From: Escherichia phage vB_EcoM_FT
Strand: one strand, 5' to 3'
Sequence record: MT682710.1
DNA length: 64,000 nt
Under the pieces are notes generated by a model that was not told the DNA's origin, ran no database searches, and worked only from the letters and a program-made list of their open reading frames with translations. Positions 2,215-37,462 of this stretch are shown in pieces. The position numbers and the translations under genes are program-made. The number at the start of each line of letters is the position of its first letter. Position 1 is the stretch's first letter.

Positions 2215-5355
<3,141 letters not shown>

Positions 5356-28295: not shown

Positions 28296-29260
28296 TGTAT
28301 TCTTTAGAGGAATTTAATAATCAAGCAATAAACGCAGATTTCCAACGTAATAATATGTTCAGCTGTGTTTTTGCTACAACTCCATCAACGAAGAGCTCTT
28401 CGTTGATAAGTTCAATTAGTAACTTTTCTTATAATAACTTGGGCCTAAATTCAGATTGGTTAGGATTAACTCAAGGCGATATTAATCAGGGAATTACTAC
28501 GCTAATTACAGCTGGCACACAAAAACTGATAAGAAAATCAGGGGTTAGTAAATATCTTATTGGTGCCATGAGTCAACGTACAGTTCAAAGTTTATTAGGC
28601 TCATTTACAGTTGGTACATATTTAATTGACTTCTTTAACATGGCATATAACTCATCTGGATTGATGATATACTCTGTAAAAATGCCAGAGAATAGATTAT
28701 CCTATGAAACTGACTGGAACTATAATTCTCCTAATATTCGTATAACTGGGAGAGAATTAGACCCTTTGGTTATTTCATTCAGAATGGATTCAGAAGCTTG
28801 TAACTATCGTGCAATGCAAGACTGGGTTAACGCTGTTCAAGACCCAGTAACTGGATTGCGTGCTTTGCCGCAAGATGTCGAGGCAGATATTCAGGTTAAT
28901 CTTCATTCTCGCAATGGATTACCACATACTGCGGTGATGTTCACTGGATGCATTCCAGTGTCCGTAAGCGCTCCTGAGTTATCATATGATGGAGATAACC
29001 AAATAACTACATTTGATGTTACTTTTGCGTATAGAGTGATGCAGGCTGGAGCAGTTGATAGACAAGCTGCCATTGAATGGCTTGAATCTGCTACTATAAA
29101 TGGTATTCAAAGCGTTCTCGGAAATAGTGGAGGTGTTACTGGACTATCTAATTCGCTTTCACGACTTAGTAGATTAGGGGGAACTGCAGGAAGCATTTCA
29201 AATATTAATACTATGACAGGAATTGTCAATTCGCAAAGTAAAATATTAGGAGCAATATAA
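28295..29260 (+). CDS. 54: baseplate tail-tube initiator gp54
   Basis: 321 aa; synteny; terminator hairpin downstream. Confidence 0.92.
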   Translation: MYSLEEFNNQAINADFQRNNMFSCVFATTPSTKSSSLISSISNFSYNNLGLNSDWLGLTQGDINQGITTLITAGTQKLIRKSGVSKYLIGAMSQRTVQSLLGSFTVGTYLIDFFNMAYNSSGLMIYSVKMPENRLSYETDWNYNSPNIRITGRELDPLVISFRMDSEACNYRAMQDWVNAVQDPVTGLRALPQDVEADIQVNLHSRNGLPHTAVMFTGCIPVSVSAPELSYDGDNQITTFDVTFAYRVMQAGAVDRQAAIEWLESATINGIQSVLGNSGGVTGLSNSLSRLSRLGGTAGSISNINTMTGIVNSQSKILGAI

Positions 29261-29264
29261 CAAT

Positions 29265-29293
29265 GGGGACCGAAAGGTCCCCATATTTTATTT
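29265..29293 (+). terminator. terminator after gene 54 (convergent junction)
   Basis: GGGGACC-GAAA-GGUCCCC followed by AUAUUUUAUUU. Confidence 0.7.
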
Positions 29294-29578
29294 ACGGAAT
29301 GAAATAAAAGCAGCAACTGAAGCAACAGAGGTTTCTTCAATATAAACCTCAATTTTTACCGGAGCTTCTGACTCAAATTTACCTGTTACTACACCTTGGA
29401 AAATACTTTCAGTCTGTTCTGGCTTTGAAAAATTTTCAGAAGGAAAAATTCCGAACTTTTTATCGGTTCCGAAAATTTTAATAAATTCATCATAAACTGC
29501 TTCATTGAAAGCGTTATCAGCAGGAATAACGCCTTCAACTACAAGTTCTTGACCTAAAAAGCGTAAAGAAGATTTCAT
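29288..29578 (-). CDS. hypothetical 11-kDa protein downstream of alt
   Basis: 96-aa ORF with GAGG RBS; own early promoter upstream. Confidence 0.65.
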   Translation of the reverse strand: MKSSLRFLGQELVVEGVIPADNAFNEAVYDEFIKIFGTDKKFGIFPSENFSKPEQTESIFQGVVTGKFESEAPVKIEVYIEETSVASVAAFISFRK

Positions 29579-29586
29579 TTTGTGTT

Positions 29587-29639
29587 CCTCATGTTATGTC
29601 AGTAAGATTACTATAACACAACACGAGGGACTTGTAAAC
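29587..29639 (-). repeat. 53-bp early-promoter repeat, copy 1
   Basis: 51 of 53 nt identical to 45401-45453. Confidence 0.85.
29610..29639 (-). promoter_or_regulatory. early (sigma70-type) promoter: GTTTAC -35, 18-nt spacer, TATAGT -10
   Basis: Minus strand GTTTACAAGTCCCTCGTGTTGTGTTATAGT; part of a 53-bp repeat. Confidence 0.65.
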
Positions 29640-31696
29640 TACATTTTGAACTTTTTAGACATTCCGTTGATGTTAACCAAAGAAGCTAAGATTTGAGAAA
29701 CTTCGCTTTCCTCTTCTTTTGATTCTTCTACAAGGAATTGATTAAATCCAGCCATTGGACGAACTTCACCAGTTTCCATTAGATGGTCGCCATCATATAC
29801 TGATTCTTCTAATTGTTCAGAAGGAGGAACGATTGTACCTTCGATTAGATACTTGTTATAAGCAGTTTCTTTCATAAAGTAAGTACTTACTTTATTAATC
29901 TTCAGTAAAATTCCACGTGGTAGAATAACTTCAGCTTCTGATGGAAATCCTGACAAATGACCTGGAACGATAACTTTAACTCGTTCAGCTCCTTTAATTA
30001 CCATACCCACGCTAGTTTCAGCATCTTCATTAGCATATGTAGAATGACTACCCATATGCATCAAATCTTCTGCATCAACGGAACCTTCTCCTTCACCAGA
30101 AAATACTGCACCGGAATCATCTAGAGCCATATAGTTTTTACCATACTCACCAAAGATATTTGGTTTAAGTGATGTCGATACGAAGTTCTTGAAATAGAAC
30201 ATTTTGTTTTCAATGTTATGACGCAAAGTTTTAAATGTAACTTCTTGTCCACGGTAAAGTGTAGTTCCTGGAGGAAGAACTGAACCTTTAGCGAATGCAG
30301 AATCAAGCGTCTCGATGTGCTTAATAGCACGTTCCATATATTCTTCACGGGTAGAATCCGGTTTACCTAAAAGGAACGAGTTCATTTCAACATATGAATC
30401 TGCGCAATAATCTTCAATTACATCAGATTCAGCCTGAGTCAGCCCTTTTGGAGTTACTTCAGTACTTGCATATTCATATGCCTGGGCAGCAGATTCATTA
30501 ATCAATTTATAAATGCCATTCATGACAAATTGAATAATAGCTGTCTTTTCATCTGGCGTAGCTTTAGAACCTTTAACTAAATCATTGATAATTTTCTTAA
30601 TAACATCAAAGCTATTAGAAATATTAATGTCAGCAAGATCGCTTAAAATTTTATCAGTTTTATAATCAAAGAATTCTTTATTCTTTAAATATTCTTGAGA
30701 ACCTTGATGTGTTATATCGCTCTGCAACTTGATAGACGGATCACGTAAACGTGCATGGGCTAATGCAATATGATTTCGGAAACTTTCTAGTTCATAATCG
30801 TTAGATTTAAAACGAGAAGCACTTCTCATACCACCGATAGCTCCTTTGCTAAAGTTTGAACCAATCTGAATAACGCCAGAGTTCATTGGTCCTTCTGCTT
30901 TATATACCGGAACTTTAGATTCAAACTCTTGATATTTCTTAGCAGCGAAGCTATCACCCTGAAGTGAAGCATCAACAGTCGAATATTGAGCTTGTGCTGC
31001 TAATCGACGACTAATTTTAGTTTTCTGAATAACAGCTTGATCCGTGCGCTTATCATTTTCTAAAGCAATAGAAGCAGCAACAGCAACAGCTTTAGGAACA
31101 GCATTACCTGTTTTAACGTCTACATAAACATCACCAACCTTTGATTCAACTTTTGTGAATAACTCAGTTGAAATAGGAGGTACACCTGGAATGTCTTCTA
31201 ATTTGGCATTTTTACGGTAAACCATAATATATGCGTACTTTTTATCATAATCCCAGATTTCCTTTAAAAGAACATATCGACCTGCTCCTTTAGTACGTAC
31301 TAAACGGTCAGCAATAACTTGAATTTGTCGAGCAGCGCCATTTGTTTTACTTTTTAGTACGCGGAATAGGCATGCATCAATTTTATACTGTTTCATTGTT
31401 TGAAGAGCAGTATCAAAAACAGCATTAATGACGCCAATTGGATTTCCACCCAAGTTTCTAAGCTTGACTAACGATAATTTCTCGTTGACCCCTATCATTA
31501 CGATATGCATCATTTTGTCGCCTGGCTTAACGTTTTTATTTGTATCACCACCAGAGGTGTATGTACAAAATCTAAATCCAGGAAGCACACTTTCTTCGCC
31601 TGCTTGAATAGCAAAAATTTGTGGTATTTTATGCTTAGGATTTAAGTTAACAACCGGCGCCGAAGCGCCGTCAAATAATTCTGTAATAAGTTCCAT
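29639..31696 (-). CDS. Alt-like ADP-ribosyltransferase paralog (685 aa)
   Basis: N-terminal MELITELFD... head-targeting region; C-terminal ART triad R (LYRGQ) / STS (FVSTSL) / ExE (SEAEVILPRG); 3 nt from upstream alt. Confidence 0.85.
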   Translation of the reverse strand: MELITELFDGASAPVVNLNPKHKIPQIFAIQAGEESVLPGFRFCTYTSGGDTNKNVKPGDKMMHIVMIGVNEKLSLVKLRNLGGNPIGVINAVFDTALQTMKQYKIDACLFRVLKSKTNGAARQIQVIADRLVRTKGAGRYVLLKEIWDYDKKYAYIMVYRKNAKLEDIPGVPPISTELFTKVESKVGDVYVDVKTGNAVPKAVAVAASIALENDKRTDQAVIQKTKISRRLAAQAQYSTVDASLQGDSFAAKKYQEFESKVPVYKAEGPMNSGVIQIGSNFSKGAIGGMRSASRFKSNDYELESFRNHIALAHARLRDPSIKLQSDITHQGSQEYLKNKEFFDYKTDKILSDLADINISNSFDVIKKIINDLVKGSKATPDEKTAIIQFVMNGIYKLINESAAQAYEYASTEVTPKGLTQAESDVIEDYCADSYVEMNSFLLGKPDSTREEYMERAIKHIETLDSAFAKGSVLPPGTTLYRGQEVTFKTLRHNIENKMFYFKNFVSTSLKPNIFGEYGKNYMALDDSGAVFSGEGEGSVDAEDLMHMGSHSTYANEDAETSVGMVIKGAERVKVIVPGHLSGFPSEAEVILPRGILLKINKVSTYFMKETAYNKYLIEGTIVPPSEQLEESVYDGDHLMETGEVRPMAGFNQFLVEESKEEESEVSQILASLVNINGMSKKFKM

Positions 31697-31699
31697 GAT

Positions 31700-33793
31700 T
31701 TATCCTTGAACGAACTTGTAAGGCATGTTTGTAATATCTATGCAAGACGCAATAATTCCAAGAGATGATTCTACTTTCTGTTTAACGTTTGATGAAACAA
31801 ATGATGCAAAGTCAACTCTGTCTTCTATTTCAATATCACCTGTCATTGCAACCAATTCACCAGTTTCCATTAAATGGTCTCCATCATAGATTACCGATTC
31901 GGTGAGCTCTTCCGTGGTCATAACTTCAGCTTGAATGAGTTTTGTATTATTAGATGTTGTTCCGTCATTATTAGAAGCATCAGTTATTTTATTAACTTTG
32001 ACCATCAATCCACGCGGTAGAATAACTTCAGCTTCTGTTGCTATTCCGAGACTTCCTGGATATACAACATTAACTTTATGAGCTCCATCAATTGCCCATC
32101 CTATTTGAACTTTAACGTATTCAGGATTTTCTTTATACGCTCTTATTTCGTTTGGATTAATAGTTATTCCTTCTTCATTTTTATCAACTGTTAATTCATT
32201 GCGAGCTTCTGGTTCTAAAAGACCAATACCAGCATGTGTGATTCCAAAACGTCCAAAAATGATAGGAGTTAAAGAAGTAGATACAAAATTTCTGAAGTAG
32301 AACACTTTATTTTTAACTAACGCTTCATATATAGGAGCAGTCATACTTTGAGCACGATAAACTGTAATGCCTTCTGGTATACGGTCACCATTTTCAAAAG
32401 CTGAATCTAAGTTATTTATAGCAGATTCAATTTCTTTTTCACTCATTACATCATATCGTTCTGGATTGTAACGACCTAAAAGAAGATTATTGATGTCAGT
32501 ATATCCTGAACCACAATATTCTCTAATGCCGCGCTTTTGTGATGGAGTATATTTAGAACCATCACGGGTAATAGTAATATCAATCATTGGACCAGCACCA
32601 ATTCCAGAAAAACTGTAAATCATTCGTTTGAGGAATTTAGTTTTTGCTGCGTTCCAGGAATTTTTAGTTATTTCTTCCCAGACTTCATCTGGTTGTCCTT
32701 TACGATTTTTATTATGATTAGCAAGCCATTTATCTTTATAATCTTCAAAGAATTGATTTACAGCTGCTGCGTATTTCTCTAAACATTTTATTGAAGTAGT
32801 TGGTTCATTTTTAATTGCATTAAAAATTACTTCTTTAATTTTTTCTGAAACTTCACCGACTTGACTCATTGGAAAGAATTTATAATCATAGTGAAGTTCA
32901 TCTGCCGTTCCTTCAGCAATAATTTTTGCTGCCTTTGTTTTAGAAGCTAATGAATTAATTCCAATTTTCATTTCTTCTGCTTCGGGAATTAAAGGTGCAG
33001 TAGCTGGTTTATTAAAATTAGCTGCTGTAGATTCATACTTCTGGAATAATTCACTTTCAAATCTAGAAGATTCCAATGACTGACTTTGTGCAATTGCTCT
33101 ACGGGAAATTTTAACTTTAACGATTACGGCTTGGTCAGAACGTTTATCATTTTCTTGTGCAATAGATGCTGCAATTGCCTCATTTTTAGTTACTTGGGCT
33201 CCAGTATCTTTATTGATATAAACATCGCCGACTTTCGATTCAACTTTAGTAAAGAGTTCAGTGCTAATTTCTGGAACTCCTGGAATGTTTTCTAGTGATA
33301 CATTTTTACGATGTATAAGAATATATGCATACTTTTTATCGTAATCCCAGAGTTCCTTAAGAAGGACGTATCTGCCACCTGAACGACTACGGATAAGTCT
33401 ATCAGCAATAACTTGAATTTGCCGAGCTTGACCAGCGGTTTTAGACTTAAGAATACGAAGCATGCAGGCATCAATTTTATATTGACGCATAGTTTGCATT
33501 GCAACAGTAAAAACTGAATTGATATAATTAATTGGGCTTGGACCAAGACCTTTTAATTTAGCAATTGAACCTTTAGCAGTTAATGTAAAAGGAACAATAT
33601 GCATCATTTTATCGCCCATCTTTAAATCGCGATTAGTATCACCTCCAGATGTATAGGTACATAAACGAAAGCCTGGTTGTTCAATTGCGTCATCGACATG
33701 AACTGAAAAAATTTGTGGTATTTTCTTCTTTGGATTTAAGTTTGTAATCGGAAGAGTAGTATCTTCGTCAAATAATTCTGTAATAAGTTCCAT
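31700..33793 (-). CDS. alt: Alt ADP-ribosyltransferase (internal head protein)
   Basis: 697 aa from second ATG (better RBS spacing); ART triad R (VYRAQ) / STS / ExE (TEAEVILPRG); late promoter upstream. Confidence 0.9.
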   Translation of the reverse strand: MELITELFDEDTTLPITNLNPKKKIPQIFSVHVDDAIEQPGFRLCTYTSGGDTNRDLKMGDKMMHIVPFTLTAKGSIAKLKGLGPSPINYINSVFTVAMQTMRQYKIDACMLRILKSKTAGQARQIQVIADRLIRSRSGGRYVLLKELWDYDKKYAYILIHRKNVSLENIPGVPEISTELFTKVESKVGDVYINKDTGAQVTKNEAIAASIAQENDKRSDQAVIVKVKISRRAIAQSQSLESSRFESELFQKYESTAANFNKPATAPLIPEAEEMKIGINSLASKTKAAKIIAEGTADELHYDYKFFPMSQVGEVSEKIKEVIFNAIKNEPTTSIKCLEKYAAAVNQFFEDYKDKWLANHNKNRKGQPDEVWEEITKNSWNAAKTKFLKRMIYSFSGIGAGPMIDITITRDGSKYTPSQKRGIREYCGSGYTDINNLLLGRYNPERYDVMSEKEIESAINNLDSAFENGDRIPEGITVYRAQSMTAPIYEALVKNKVFYFRNFVSTSLTPIIFGRFGITHAGIGLLEPEARNELTVDKNEEGITINPNEIRAYKENPEYVKVQIGWAIDGAHKVNVVYPGSLGIATEAEVILPRGLMVKVNKITDASNNDGTTSNNTKLIQAEVMTTEELTESVIYDGDHLMETGELVAMTGDIEIEDRVDFASFVSSNVKQKVESSLGIIASCIDITNMPYKFVQG

Positions 33794-33816
33794 CATAGCC
33801 TCTCTAGTGTTTATTC

Positions 33817-33824
33817 TATTTATA
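33817..33824 (-). promoter_or_regulatory. late promoter for alt
   Basis: TATAAATA on minus strand ~20 nt upstream of the alt ATG. Confidence 0.65.
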
Positions 33825-33845
33825 AAATTAAAGGCCCGAAGGCCT

Positions 33846-34034
33846 TTAGTAATCTAGTGGTAAGAGAGTACGATATATTTCAAACTTTGGTCCTTTTTCA
33901 TAGGCATCAAATGTTTCTGTAAATTTATTATAAGCGTATGCATCTACAAATTCGAGAATGACTTGTGATACAGAAGTAGAAACATCTCCACCTTCTTTTT
34001 GAGCAATGACAATTGTTTCTAAGTAAGCTTTCAT
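33846..34034 (-). CDS. hypothetical small protein
   Basis: 62-aa ORF overlapping ligase stop by 4 nt. Confidence 0.5.
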   Translation of the reverse strand: MKAYLETIVIAQKEGGDVSTSVSQVILEFVDAYAYNKFTETFDAYEKGPKFEIYRTLLPLDY

Positions 34035-35494
34035 AAACCAGTTACCTCATGAAAATTACCAAATACATCCTCGAATGTATTAGCTTTAGTTTTATCTTCA
34101 CGCAAACGAATCGCAATCGGAAGAAATAATTTAACGTAATCAGTGCGGCCATCAGATTTTAACCAACCGTTGCATTCGCACTCTAGAATTTTTCCAATAT
34201 AATAATTTTGGTTTTCCATAATGCGAGTACGGTCAAGTTCATGCGATTTTACACCAGCTTTATCTTTTAAGCCTGAACCAGCATTTACTTTAATTTTTCC
34301 ACACTCTGACTCAAGAATAAATCCACCCGCTTTAGTAGGGTCTTTACGGTGAGGATAAATTCCTACAATTTTTAAATCAACATCAATTACTTCTTTAAAT
34401 TTATAAAGATTTTTTGAACGAGCATTTTCCCATAATCCATCGATATTTTTGAGAATAATACCTTCAAAACCTTGGTCAATATACTTTTTGTAAATTACCT
34501 TAGCTTCATCTAGGTTATTTACTACTTGGTTTTCAATTAAAATTACTTTATCATAGCCTGATGTCATTTGTTCTAGTTTAGAAAAACGTACATCATATTT
34601 TAAACGAAATGCTGGAAGACCATATATTTCTACTAATGGAACATAATCCCAGACCTGAAACTTCATGCATTGTGCTTCTTTTTCAGAAATGGTTCCCTTT
34701 AAAGATTTATTGGCGATGCCATTAGATGCAGTACGTGATTCAGCTACTTCGGCGAATTCTTTAGCTTTACTAATTTCGGGATAAGCATCAAAAAGAAAAT
34801 CTAGGCCTTCTGGTTCCTTTTCAACTTGCTCATGGTATACCAATTCGCCATCAATTAACACACCTTCTGGATGAATCTGGCGGGCTTCAGCAGTCATTTT
34901 GATTAACTCTTCCTTAAGAAGATCTAATCCTAGATATTCATTGCCAGCTCGTGATAAAAGACGAACATCATCTAATTCATCACCTCTGACTTCGGCAAAG
35001 CACCGAGCTCCATCAGCTTTTAACTGGGCAAAAGCTGGAAATTTGATATTCTTATTAATGCCTTTTTCATCATAAGAACTTGCCAGCATTTGAGGTTGTT
35101 CAGGAATTAAACCTGGCCAAACTTTGTTTGCAATAGATACTGATGCACCGCATTCAAGGTCTCGCATCATCACCCGACGCAAAACTTCAACATCATCTTT
35201 TTTACCGTCAGTAATATATCCAGTTAATTCCTCAATTGCCGCATTTCCGGTCAATTTCCGAGTAGCTAACGTGAATTCAATGAAGTCAAGCATATCGGTA
35301 AGAGTCAACATTCCAAAACTCTGTGTAGCAATACCCGGTTTAGGCCATTTCTTGATATAATACTGTAACCCACGAGAATAAGTCAGACGATATACTCGTT
35401 TAAGCAATTCATTATCTTTATTCTTTTCAAGAATTGCTTGCTTCTGCTTAGTTGAACCAATAGATGCTATTTCGTTCAGAATTTTAAGAATCAT
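34031..35494 (-). CDS. 30: ATP-dependent DNA ligase gp30
   Basis: 487 aa; KADGAR adenylation motif; T4 ligase length. Confidence 0.95.
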   Translation of the reverse strand: MILKILNEIASIGSTKQKQAILEKNKDNELLKRVYRLTYSRGLQYYIKKWPKPGIATQSFGMLTLTDMLDFIEFTLATRKLTGNAAIEELTGYITDGKKDDVEVLRRVMMRDLECGASVSIANKVWPGLIPEQPQMLASSYDEKGINKNIKFPAFAQLKADGARCFAEVRGDELDDVRLLSRAGNEYLGLDLLKEELIKMTAEARQIHPEGVLIDGELVYHEQVEKEPEGLDFLFDAYPEISKAKEFAEVAESRTASNGIANKSLKGTISEKEAQCMKFQVWDYVPLVEIYGLPAFRLKYDVRFSKLEQMTSGYDKVILIENQVVNNLDEAKVIYKKYIDQGFEGIILKNIDGLWENARSKNLYKFKEVIDVDLKIVGIYPHRKDPTKAGGFILESECGKIKVNAGSGLKDKAGVKSHELDRTRIMENQNYYIGKILECECNGWLKSDGRTDYVKLFLPIAIRLREDKTKANTFEDVFGNFHEVTGL

Positions 35495-35760
35495 TGTTCA
35501 TCCTTTAGAGTTTGGTTTACAGCTCTATTATAAATCAATTCATCATTAAGCTCAGTCAAAGACCTGTGGTACGTGGTTCTAACTTTATTTCCTTGCATCC
35601 AGTGCTTGACGTAAATGAAACCTTGCTCTACACATTTTTTAAAAATTCGTTCGTCTTTTTGAGCTCGGAATTCTGGATTGCATCTAAAAAATTGATTTAC
35701 GTGACCGTAATCACGTGTAGTATTACCTTCATTTTCATAAATAGTGTGAACAACAAACAT
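35491..35760 (-). CDS. hypothetical protein (30.1-like)
   Basis: 89-aa ORF in overlapping operon. Confidence 0.6.
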   Translation of the reverse strand: MFVVHTIYENEGNTTRDYGHVNQFFRCNPEFRAQKDERIFKKCVEQGFIYVKHWMQGNKVRTTYHRSLTELNDELIYNRAVNQTLKDEQ

Positions 35761-36614
35761 TAGAATGCTCCTTGGAAAATATTATCACCACTACCACTAG
35801 TAAGTCTATTAAAATACCCTGCATCGCCAGGCTTAATATAACTCCACGTATGGAATGGATGCATCTGATGTGAGTGTGTATAATATGGATGATATGGATT
35901 ATAAGGATTTAATCCAGGAGTTCTCCAGGTAGTATTCCAACGAAAAGAATCGTTTTTGATCATCTTCTCAATTACATCTTTTATAACTTTTTCACTATCA
36001 AAACTTTCTTTATTTTCCTTCGATGGAAAAAGCTTATTCTCTACATCATTCCATGTATAAACTCGCTGTGCAGTTTTTGGAATACTGTCACGCTCTCCTC
36101 GAGCCATCCAATAAACTGGAACATTTAATATTTCACTCGCATGATCGCAATGGTGAGCGAGATCGTCAATATAACAAATTACGTTATATTTCTCTTTTGC
36201 CTTTTTGAACAACTCTTCTTTTGAAGAATCATGGCCACACATCAATACTTCTGAGAAGGCACCAGGAAAAAGAGCATTCAAATTAAATTGACGATTCAGC
36301 AGAGCGTCAATAGAATCACCCAATGCTGTAACAGCTACAAAATTATAATCTTCTTTTAATTTATTAATTACACACAGGGCATCTTTATATGGAGACAAGT
36401 AACGAATAAAATCTGAACGATTATATTTTTCAATTAACTTGACACCAAGTTCTTCATCGCAATTAAAGAGCTTACCAGGAGAAATAAATTTTTCATCTTG
36501 GATCATTTTTAAAATATGTTCCAACGGAAGATTATATTTTTGGGCAAAATAAGGAAGGCCGGATTGCCAGCTTAAACACACCCCGTCAATATCAGTCAAA
36601 ATAGTAGGCTTCAT
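35760..36614 (-). CDS. HAD-superfamily hydrolase-like protein (30.2-like)
   Basis: 284 aa; N-terminal LTDIDGV (DxDG motif I), downstream VAVTALGDS and YIDD motifs. Confidence 0.6.
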   Translation of the reverse strand: MKPTILTDIDGVCLSWQSGLPYFAQKYNLPLEHILKMIQDEKFISPGKLFNCDEELGVKLIEKYNRSDFIRYLSPYKDALCVINKLKEDYNFVAVTALGDSIDALLNRQFNLNALFPGAFSEVLMCGHDSSKEELFKKAKEKYNVICYIDDLAHHCDHASEILNVPVYWMARGERDSIPKTAQRVYTWNDVENKLFPSKENKESFDSEKVIKDVIEKMIKNDSFRWNTTWRTPGLNPYNPYHPYYTHSHQMHPFHTWSYIKPGDAGYFNRLTSGSGDNIFQGAF

Positions 36615-37075
36615 AGAGAGTCTCTTAATAGGTTTAACACATCAATAAATTCAGCTTCGGTTAGTATTGTATCATCTTTTGTTAGACCACTAGCCATGCT
36701 GTGCTTCAAAACTTTTCCTTTTGAGGCTTGTAAGGCATCACGAAACCCCTTGTTTTGAATCGCTGCTTCAAAATATGCATTTGTATACAACTCTTTCCAC
36801 GCTGGGGAGTATCTTGAAAATGGAACTCCCAGCCAGAAGAGGGTCCCACGGTCCTGAGCTCTAGCATAAGACCTTCCAGCTTGTTGGGCGGCAATCCCGG
36901 ATAACCCAAATATACGACGTTGTTGTTCAGCATTTTTCACCTTGCATCCTTGGAGGAATCCTTCAAGACCTCCGAATTGAATACCATCCATGACGAAAGG
37001 CCATTGGGCGAAATTACTTAATGCACACGATGGCCATCTAAAATTGCTTCTAATCTCTAACTCAGACATTTTCAA
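36611..37075 (-). CDS. NADAR/YbiA-like (DUF1768) domain protein (30.3-like)
   Basis: 154 aa; LSNFAQWPFxxDGxxFxxxEGFLQGCK resembles the YbiA motif FSNFAAWPxxVDG...EHYFQAQK. Confidence 0.55.
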   Translation of the reverse strand: MKMSELEIRSNFRWPSCALSNFAQWPFVMDGIQFGGLEGFLQGCKVKNAEQQRRIFGLSGIAAQQAGRSYARAQDRGTLFWLGVPFSRYSPAWKELYTNAYFEAAIQNKGFRDALQASKGKVLKHSMASGLTKDDTILTEAEFIDVLNLLRDSL

Positions 37076-37268
37076 TACTTATAATTTCAACATCAGCCCA
37101 ATGACCATAGCAAGGAAGACGAAATTCAACTGGCCAGTTAGGGTCCTTTTCTAATATAATAGACTTAACTTGTGGTTCTTCATGTTCATCAGTATATGGA
37201 TTTTTATCTGTTACTTTATATGTGACCTTAATGTACTGAATTCCAAAAATCTTATTAATTATATTCAT
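37062..37268 (-). CDS. hypothetical small protein
   Basis: 68-aa ORF, overlapping operon. Confidence 0.5.
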   Translation of the reverse strand: MNIINKIFGIQYIKVTYKVTDKNPYTDEHEEPQVKSIILEKDPNWPVEFRLPCYGHWADVEIISIENV

Positions 37269-37462
37269 ACTAATTCCTTTAATCCGTAAATAGGAGATAA
37301 TTCATCACCCATACGAAGGTCTTCATTTCCATCTACCCAGGAAACAATATAAGCCTCTTTTATTTGAATACCACTCCATTTAAATGGAGGTAGAACCTTA
37401 GAAATTAATCCAGGTATACCAACTCCCTTTAATTCAACAGTTTGACCTAAAAAGAATTTCAT
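37265..37462 (-). CDS. hypothetical small protein
   Basis: 65-aa ORF, overlapping operon. Confidence 0.5.
   Translation of the reverse strand: MKFFLGQTVELKGVGIPGLISKVLPPFKWSGIQIKEAYIVSWVDGNEDLRMGDELSPIYGLKELV

Follow-up and report, generated by a model that had tools for sequence, protein, structure and literature searches.

The sequence analysed here is a 64,000-nucleotide stretch (the window) of the genome of Escherichia phage vB_EcoM_FT (MT682710.1). Our analysis concerns the part around its DNA ligase gene, which contains two tandem genes for Alt-type ADP-ribosyltransferases (ARTs), a gene for a protein of the HAD type, and a gene for a protein of the NADAR family. Sequence comparison assigns the window to Tequatrovirus, the T4-like coliphages, and the part under study to the ordinary alt-gene 30-30.3 region. 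An 8.1-kb stretch (29200-37300) aligns over its full length, at 97% identity, with many Tequatrovirus genomes, including those of wV7, RB51, RB68, and teqhad; 738 phage records match this region, at least 391 of them covering at least 80% of it. The genes are syntenic, one by one, with those of the annotated T4 and RB51 records throughout, and all products except the two Alt proteins share 90-100% identity with their T4 counterparts. The overall arrangement is already known: it is the standard T4 alt-30-30.x map with one difference, an intact second Alt gene, as found in at least 401 other records. We put at about 90% the probability that the region is this standard segment, with two functionally separate sets of genes lying side by side.

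All four open reading frames singled out in the initial annotation (29639-31696, 31700-33793, 35760-36614, and 36611-37075) are present on the minus strand and are real, conserved genes rather than chance reading frames. They are listed in Table 1 with the neighbouring genes and the elements that appear to govern their transcription.

Table 1. Genes and transcription signals of the alt-30-30.x region of vB_EcoM_FT (positions within the window; aa, amino acids)
Feature	Position	Strand	Evidence or remarks
Bidirectional GC-rich hairpin terminator	29263..29284	both strands	between gene 54 (plus) and alt.-3 (minus); 9 pairs, 6 G-C
alt.-3, 96 aa, DUF5498	29288..29578	minus	PF17602, E 3e-62; 97% identity to T4 Alt.-3
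Second Alt paralog ('altB'; RB51 name alt.-2), 685 aa	29639..31696	minus	PF03496, E 5e-20
alt ('altA'), 697 aa	31700..33793	minus	PF03496, E 1e-37; positional orthologue of T4 Alt
T4 late promoter consensus TATAAATA	33817..33824	minus	exact match
Intrinsic terminator hairpin AAAGGCCTTCGGGCCTTT and T-run	33829..33848	minus	end of alt.1
alt.1, 62 aa, Pfam 'Phage blade protein'	33846..34034	minus	PF24647, E 1.9e-29; 90% identity to T4 Alt.1
Gene 30, ATP-dependent DNA ligase	34031..35494	minus	PF01068, E 3.8e-32; 99% identity to T4 gp30
30.1, DUF3045	35491..35760	minus	PF11243, E 2.9e-64; 99% identity to T4 gp30.1
30.2, HAD-superfamily phosphatase-like, 284 aa	35760..36614	minus	91% identity to T4 gp30.2
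30.3 (adfN), phage-type NADAR, 152 aa	36611..37069	minus	PF08010, E 1e-69; 98% identity to T4 gp30.3
30.4	37062-37268	minus	comparison with annotated T4 and RB51 records

The region appears to be divided between alt.1 and alt. A GC-rich hairpin with a run of T residues follows alt.1, and after it comes the late promoter consensus, approximately 20 nt before the start of alt. Both elements are also present between these genes in T4 and RB51, and five of six T4-like genomes share a conserved terminator upstream of alt (PMC1524935). This hairpin is predicted to close the 30.x-30-alt.1 unit, within which start and stop codons overlap from gene to gene (30.4-30.3-30.2-30.1-30-alt.1); 30.3 overlaps 30.2 as ATGA and 30.4 by 8 nt. 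The second Alt gene, 3 nt after alt, has no promoter of its own, and both Alt genes would be transcribed late, as a unit that putatively ends at the bidirectional hairpin before gene 54.

Two other promoter-like elements were found on the minus strand. A second exact copy of TATAAATA lies inside the alt coding sequence (32413-32420) and may be an internal late promoter that boosts expression of the second Alt. Between the stop codon of the second Alt and alt.-3 there is a sigma70-like promoter with an extended -10 element (TTTACA-17-TATAGT, preceded by TG; 29610-29638), so alt.-3 may also be transcribed early, apart from the late alt unit.

The two Alt genes lie head-to-tail, with the junction TAA-atc-ATG and an AAGGA ribosome-binding site for the downstream copy; the upstream product has 697 residues, or 698 if translation begins at an ATG one codon further upstream. 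Both products score well above the 23.4-bit cut-off of PF03496 (ADPrib_exo_Tox), with 129.9 bits for the upstream and 72.1 bits for the downstream copy, and the matches of both to PHROG 802, 'Alt-like RNA polymerase ADP-ribosyltransferase', span the entire protein (E 7e-273 for the 697-residue and 8.5e-256 for the 685-residue protein). The original description of two full-length Alt-type genes only 3 nt apart is thereby confirmed. The nearest sequences in the PDB are those of binary-toxin ARTs, CdtA and iota-toxin Ia; to our knowledge, no Alt structure has been solved. The sequence MELITELFD and the catalytic triad are common to both copies and to T4 Alt. The triad comprises R480, S505-T-S507, and E587xE589 in the upstream protein and, in its own numbering, R482, S507-T-S509, and E587xE589 in the downstream protein; the motifs YR(A/G)Q, FVSTSL, and EAEVILPRG are found in both and align with T4 Alt. 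These features identify both proteins as predicted R-S-E ARTs of the Alt/VIP2 clade.

T4 Alt is cleaved by the gp21 prohead protease at ITE-6 and LTE-619 (PMC5694885). Corresponding sites were identified in the upstream copy (ITE-6 and LTE-632) and in the downstream copy (ITE-6 and LEE-631), the C-terminal sites aligning with LTE-619. Because the ITE-6 site of the capsid-targeting propeptide and a C-terminal LxE site are kept in both, both proteins are most likely packaged in the head, trimmed by gp21, and injected.

As the initial annotation had noted, the shared N-terminal and catalytic motifs flank central regions that differ: the copies are 65% identical to each other in residues 1-245, 16.5% in residues 246-412, and 33% in the ART domain. 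The known targets of T4 Alt are host proteins, RNA polymerase alpha and MazF among others. [quoted passage not shown]

The primary alt gene (31700-33793) is a cassette-like mosaic relative to T4 alt, with ends of 245 and about 70 residues that are near-identical to T4 Alt and a divergent middle. The two proteins are 71% identical overall, with 99% identity over residues 1-245, 29% over 246-412, 61% over 413-625, and 94% over 626-697. The central region is 99.7% identical to that of RB51. Tequatrovirus phages carry at least two central alleles, an RB51 type found in approximately 330-400 records and a T4 type found in approximately 175-213. The possibility that T4 Alt arose as a recombinant of the two copies was considered and rejected, as the T4 central region is only 29% and 8% identical to them.

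The downstream Alt is 41% identical to T4 Alt, and its first 116 residues are approximately 95% identical to the products of T4 alt.-1 and alt.-2. This settles a point on which the initial annotation could not commit itself, namely whether T4 has the same two-copy arrangement: the alt-30-30.x map is the same, but T4 keeps only remnants of the second Alt gene, the first 116 or so codons surviving as alt.-1/alt.-2 with a stop codon, while about 1.7 kb of the gene has been lost by deletion. The tail of T4 Alt.-2 (SLQVPRVVL) is an out-of-frame reading of DNA that here lies just 3′ of the stop codon of the second Alt (window positions 29600-29640), which puts the distal deletion end immediately upstream of that stop. 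Among the sampled records, only a minority match the whole of the T4 junction sequence.

Duplications of Alt in T4-like phages have been described since 2006 (PMC1524935); literature searches for a functional study of the second paralog found nothing specific. One explanation of this gene is that it is a redundant duplicate without a function of its own, heading for loss as in T4. Its reduction to remnants in T4 is consistent with this, as are the reported dispensability of T4 Alt and the absence of the distal part of the second Alt gene, at megablast sensitivity, from approximately 340 of the 738 matching records. Against it, the gene has an uninterrupted reading frame that keeps all of the catalytic and processing motifs, it retains its own ribosome-binding site, and the records that carry it, T2 among them, do so at 90-99% identity. 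Comparison with RB51 gives 12 nonsynonymous differences and a ratio of nonsynonymous to synonymous polymorphism (pN/pS) of 0.05 at a synonymous divergence of 0.14; the second Alt is under purifying selection. With a central region so unlike that of the upstream copy, it is also not redundant in sequence, and decay without function is very unlikely. The conserved second paralog may be an injected effector with an anti-defence target of its own.

The product of gene 30.3 matches the phage-specific model PF08010 (Phage_30_3) with 233 bits against a cut-off of 36, over 138 of 138 profile positions, and is identical to T4 gp30.3, a protein of equal length, at 149 of 152 residues. Translation likely starts where the T4 annotation has it, at the ATG at 37069 and not at the TTG at 37075. 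E36, K43, and H123 are all present here; among 38 aligned homologues, the first and last of these never vary and K43 almost never does. An AlphaFold2 model was obtained with high confidence (predicted local distance difference test score [pLDDT], 95.1; predicted template modelling score, 0.90). When this model was compared with the PDB by Foldseek, the only matches at a probability of at least 0.99 were NADAR structures: YbiA (2b3w; E 3.5e-5, template modelling score 0.68), PnNADAR (8bau), and the G. lovleyi NADAR (8bat). The same three proteins are given as structural matches by Johannesman et al. (PMC11825919). A profile of the family matches YbiA at an E-value of 7.8e-4. Single-sequence searches of gp30.3 and gp30.2 against PDB sequences gave matches at E-values of about 1 only, and profiles and structure models were therefore needed for both. 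The suggestion that this reading frame encodes a NADAR/YbiA-like protein is thus borne out, with a start slightly downstream of the one proposed.

The name AdfN, short for anti-DarT factor NADAR, is now given to T4 gp30.3 (Johannesman et al., Nat Commun 2025, PMC11825919). T4 needs AdfN to form plaques on DarTG1 hosts, and AdfN is enough to let RB69 do so; in purified form it strips ADP-ribose from DarT1-modified DNA, and its function is impaired by E36A, by K43A, or by a C-terminal truncation like that of the natural RB69 allele (PMC11825919). An independent report describes hydrolysis of guanine-ADP-ribose by the T4 protein (Toxins 2024 NADAR study, PMC11125620), and Schuller et al. 2023 is cited with these two studies for the guanine-ADP-ribose DNA glycohydrolase activity of AdfN against DarTG1. 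In a T4 transposon screen, 30.3 was needed only when the host has DarTG1 (HIDEN-SEQ preprint). In the last strand, phage NADARs carry a distinguishing histidine at a position that holds glutamate or aspartate in other NADARs (PMC11125620, PMC11543638).

The vB_EcoM_FT protein occupies the same place as T4 AdfN, between 30.4 and 30.2, and keeps E36, K43, H123, and the C-terminal helix. It differs from T4 AdfN by three conservative substitutions (V47A, L59I, and I125M), from which no functional difference is expected. At this level of identity, gp30.3 is predicted to be the anti-DarT1 factor AdfN, in agreement with the original proposal that the NADAR-like protein counters DarT-type DNA ADP-ribosylation; that sequence-only annotation was right in picking out an anti-DarT NADAR gene, whose characterisation in the field dates from 2023-2025 (PMC11825919, PMC11125620).

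The T4 annotation includes 30.3′, a 75-amino-acid reading frame that lies within 30.3 in a second frame; it is open in vB_EcoM_FT as well (36706-36933, minus strand). Some relatives of gp30.3 in Escherichia phages are shortened or fused to fragments of PF06919, PF11097, PF06019, or PF26911. This pattern suggests that deletions in the block disrupt adfN in some isolates, and such phages might be sensitive to DarTG1.

Gene 30.2 encodes the protein described at the outset as a DxDG HAD-like hydrolase, and both the motifs and the fold uphold that description. In 31 homologues, D8xD10-G11, K132, and D150-D151 are invariant and T96 is nearly invariant. The AlphaFold2 model has a pLDDT above 90 over residues 1-190, which form a capped Rossmann-like domain. 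Foldseek returned 121 PDB matches to this model at E-values up to 1e-3; all of the 50 listed are HAD-family structures, including HAD hydrolases and the 5′(3′)-deoxyribonucleotidases 2jao, 2i7d, and 3bwv (E about 1e-7). The family profile finds 2jao in the PDB at an E-value of 0.02, and weak matches were obtained by seven of the 31 relatives to PF00702 (best 3.5e-4) and by five to the NT5C model PF06941 (best 1.2e-4). An NT5C-like HAD domain thus occupies residues 1 to about 195 and is followed by a disordered tail, and the protein is probably a phosphatase-like enzyme directed at nucleotides. A literature search for gp30.2 found no study of the protein.

The tail of gp30.2 (residues 200-284, approximately; 35760-36020) is a low-complexity segment of about 85 residues, rich in proline, tyrosine, histidine, and asparagine (NPYNPYHPYY...), with a pLDDT below 50. 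It carries an insertion/deletion relative to T4, in which the protein has 278 residues, and is missing from many homologues that consist of the HAD domain alone (200-220 residues).

Homologues of 30.3 were identified in approximately 1,500 phage records (1510), and the 30.2 family, with 1451, has a very similar distribution among genera. Their genomic contexts vary. Karamvirus, Tegunavirus, and Gelderlandvirus have the 30.3 gene in the tRNA region, and a Caulobacter phage has it beside an RNA ligase gene; in none of these is alt, ligase, or 30.2 found within 3.5 kb of it. Five of the six distant 30.3 loci compared have no ART gene within 3.5 kb; the sixth is that of Acinetobacter phage Acj61, where alt lies on the opposite strand and where, alone among these loci, the order 30.3-30.2-30 is repeated. 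In phiR1-RT, PS49, S16, and KaAlpha (locus at about 3500-3950), 30.3 is found among tRNA genes and small open reading frames, far from ligase and alt, so the gene has moved within the Straboviridae genome plan.

AdfN works in vitro, yet uninfected cells are not rescued by it, and Bas25 and T5, which are not T-even phages, are rescued only to a slight extent; Johannesman et al. propose that it may need a further protein of T-even phages (PMC11825919). If gp30.2 were this factor, 30.3 and 30.2 would make up a two-gene anti-DarT unit. The two genes do adjoin in Tequatrovirus and in Acj61, their stop and start codons overlap, and the families resemble each other in number and distribution. Overlaps of this kind are the rule throughout the T4 gene block and so are not specific evidence; AdfN alone clears ADP-ribose from DNA in vitro (PMC11825919); a phosphatase is not obviously needed for NADAR chemistry; and in the three genera with 30.3 in the tRNA region no 30.2 lies nearby. 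Such a role for gp30.2 is very unlikely.

In the initial annotation, the two Alt proteins and the NADAR protein were tentatively joined as writers and eraser in a single module; our analysis does not support this part of the proposal. Here the ART and NADAR genes are 2.8 kb apart, with four genes, the terminator, and the late promoter between them. Their proximity reflects T4 genome order and is not a dedicated writer/eraser system. The intervening terminator and late promoter, and a linkage that is not conserved among relatives, led us to reject a writer/eraser operon of the DarT-NADAR type.

The idea of one functional system, in which for example AdfN would trim or reverse marks made by Alt on nucleic acid or protein, or the two would act together against DarT, has some points in its favour. 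All of the genes are on the same strand within 7.5 kb; other R-S-E (ARTC) enzymes, ScARP and the pierisins, make the N2-guanine-ADP-ribose link that NADARs cut (PMC11543638); in several T4-like phages, Iyer et al. 2022 saw ART genes with NADAR genes close by; Acj61, too, has 30.3, 30.2, ligase, and alt as neighbours; and the literature examined holds no test of AdfN on Alt products. Against these stand the signals that divide the 30.x block from the alt genes, here and likewise in T4 and RB51, the four intervening and unrelated genes (ligase among them), the opposite orientation of alt in Acj61, and the 30.3 genes of Karamvirus, Tegunavirus, Gelderlandvirus, and the Caulobacter phage, which have no alt within 3.5 kb. 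The AdfN phenotype is moreover wholly accounted for by host DarT1 (PMC11825919; HIDEN-SEQ preprint), and the substrate shown for AdfN is guanine-ADP-ribose placed on DNA by that enzyme, a different class of target from the host proteins modified by Alt. This is the least probable of the explanations considered, and hardly credible.

The standard segment with two independent gene sets thus remains the preferred reading. The first set, the late unit, would run from the late promoter through alt to the second alt and would supply two arginine-type (R-S-E) mono-ADP-ribosyltransferases, which by homology would be packaged, trimmed, and injected with the DNA to ADP-ribosylate host proteins. The second, the tightly overlapping upstream unit from 30.4 to alt.1, would supply AdfN, which would remove the ADP-ribose put on phage DNA guanines by host DarT1 and so restore replication in DarTG1 hosts, together with a HAD-fold protein, probably a nucleotide-directed phosphatase, and DNA ligase.

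Several points weigh against this reading. The general NADAR hidden Markov model PF08719, named at the outset as a check, gives no direct match to gp30.3 at E-values up to 1; it is matched by 17 of the 38 relatives (best 1.5e-7). We do not count the missing match as a refutation, since a separate model, PF08010, covers the phage branch, and since the protein is tied to NADAR by its fold, its catalytic residues, and the matches of its relatives. No Pfam match above threshold was obtained for gp30.2, and NCBIfam gave nothing useful for it or for the two Alts and gp30.3. The AdfN activity assigned here is transferred from the T4 protein, the packaging and target choice of both Alts are read from motifs, and the targets of the primary Alt need not equal those of T4 Alt, given 61% identity in the ART domain and 29% in the centre. 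Finally, on sequence evidence, transcription may read through the alt.1 terminator.

Hundreds of T-even phages keep the second Alt under purifying selection, yet the laboratory model T4 lacks it. What its targets are, why the Alt centre varies so much from allele to allele, and what role gp30.2 has are incremental questions about known kinds of protein and do not point to a new system.

Each of the four proteins can be placed beside a known counterpart. The upstream Alt resembles T4 Alt as its positional orthologue, with the same late promoter, R-S-E triad, and ITE-6/LTE gp21 sites, and differs from it in being of the RB51 allele type. The downstream Alt is the same gene, of the same length, as RB51 alt.-2; it belongs with the RB51/RB14 'alt.-2' genes (NCBI 'Alt-like RNA polymerase ADP-ribosyltransferase'), the T4 alt.-1/alt.-2 remnants, and ORF187c of 44RR, and differs from its T4 counterpart only in being intact. 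gp30.2 shares a Rossmann-like core, a helical cap, and the four catalytic motifs with the NT5C-family 5′(3′)-deoxyribonucleotidases (2jao, 2i7d, and 4mum) and other HAD hydrolases; unlike the NT5C family, to which it is about 17% identical, it has the extra disordered tail.

Beyond T4 AdfN, gp30.3 can be compared with the DarG1-type NADAR antitoxins and YbiA (8bat, 8bau, and 2b3w; Schuller et al. 2023), with which it shares the fold and the catalytic glutamate and lysine. Identity to these proteins is 15-18%, and the phage branch has histidine in place of their last-strand glutamate or aspartate. The phage NADAR gene is also an orphan without an adjacent DarT, and T4 AdfN, unlike the DarG1-type antitoxins, shows no antitoxin action in uninfected cells (PMC11825919). 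In contrast to DarT-NADAR operons, the ART and NADAR genes of vB_EcoM_FT are neither adjacent nor, judging from the elements between them, co-transcribed, and whereas DarT is a DNA-modifying enzyme of the ARTD type, both ARTs found here are of the R-S-E Alt/VIP2 type (PF03496).

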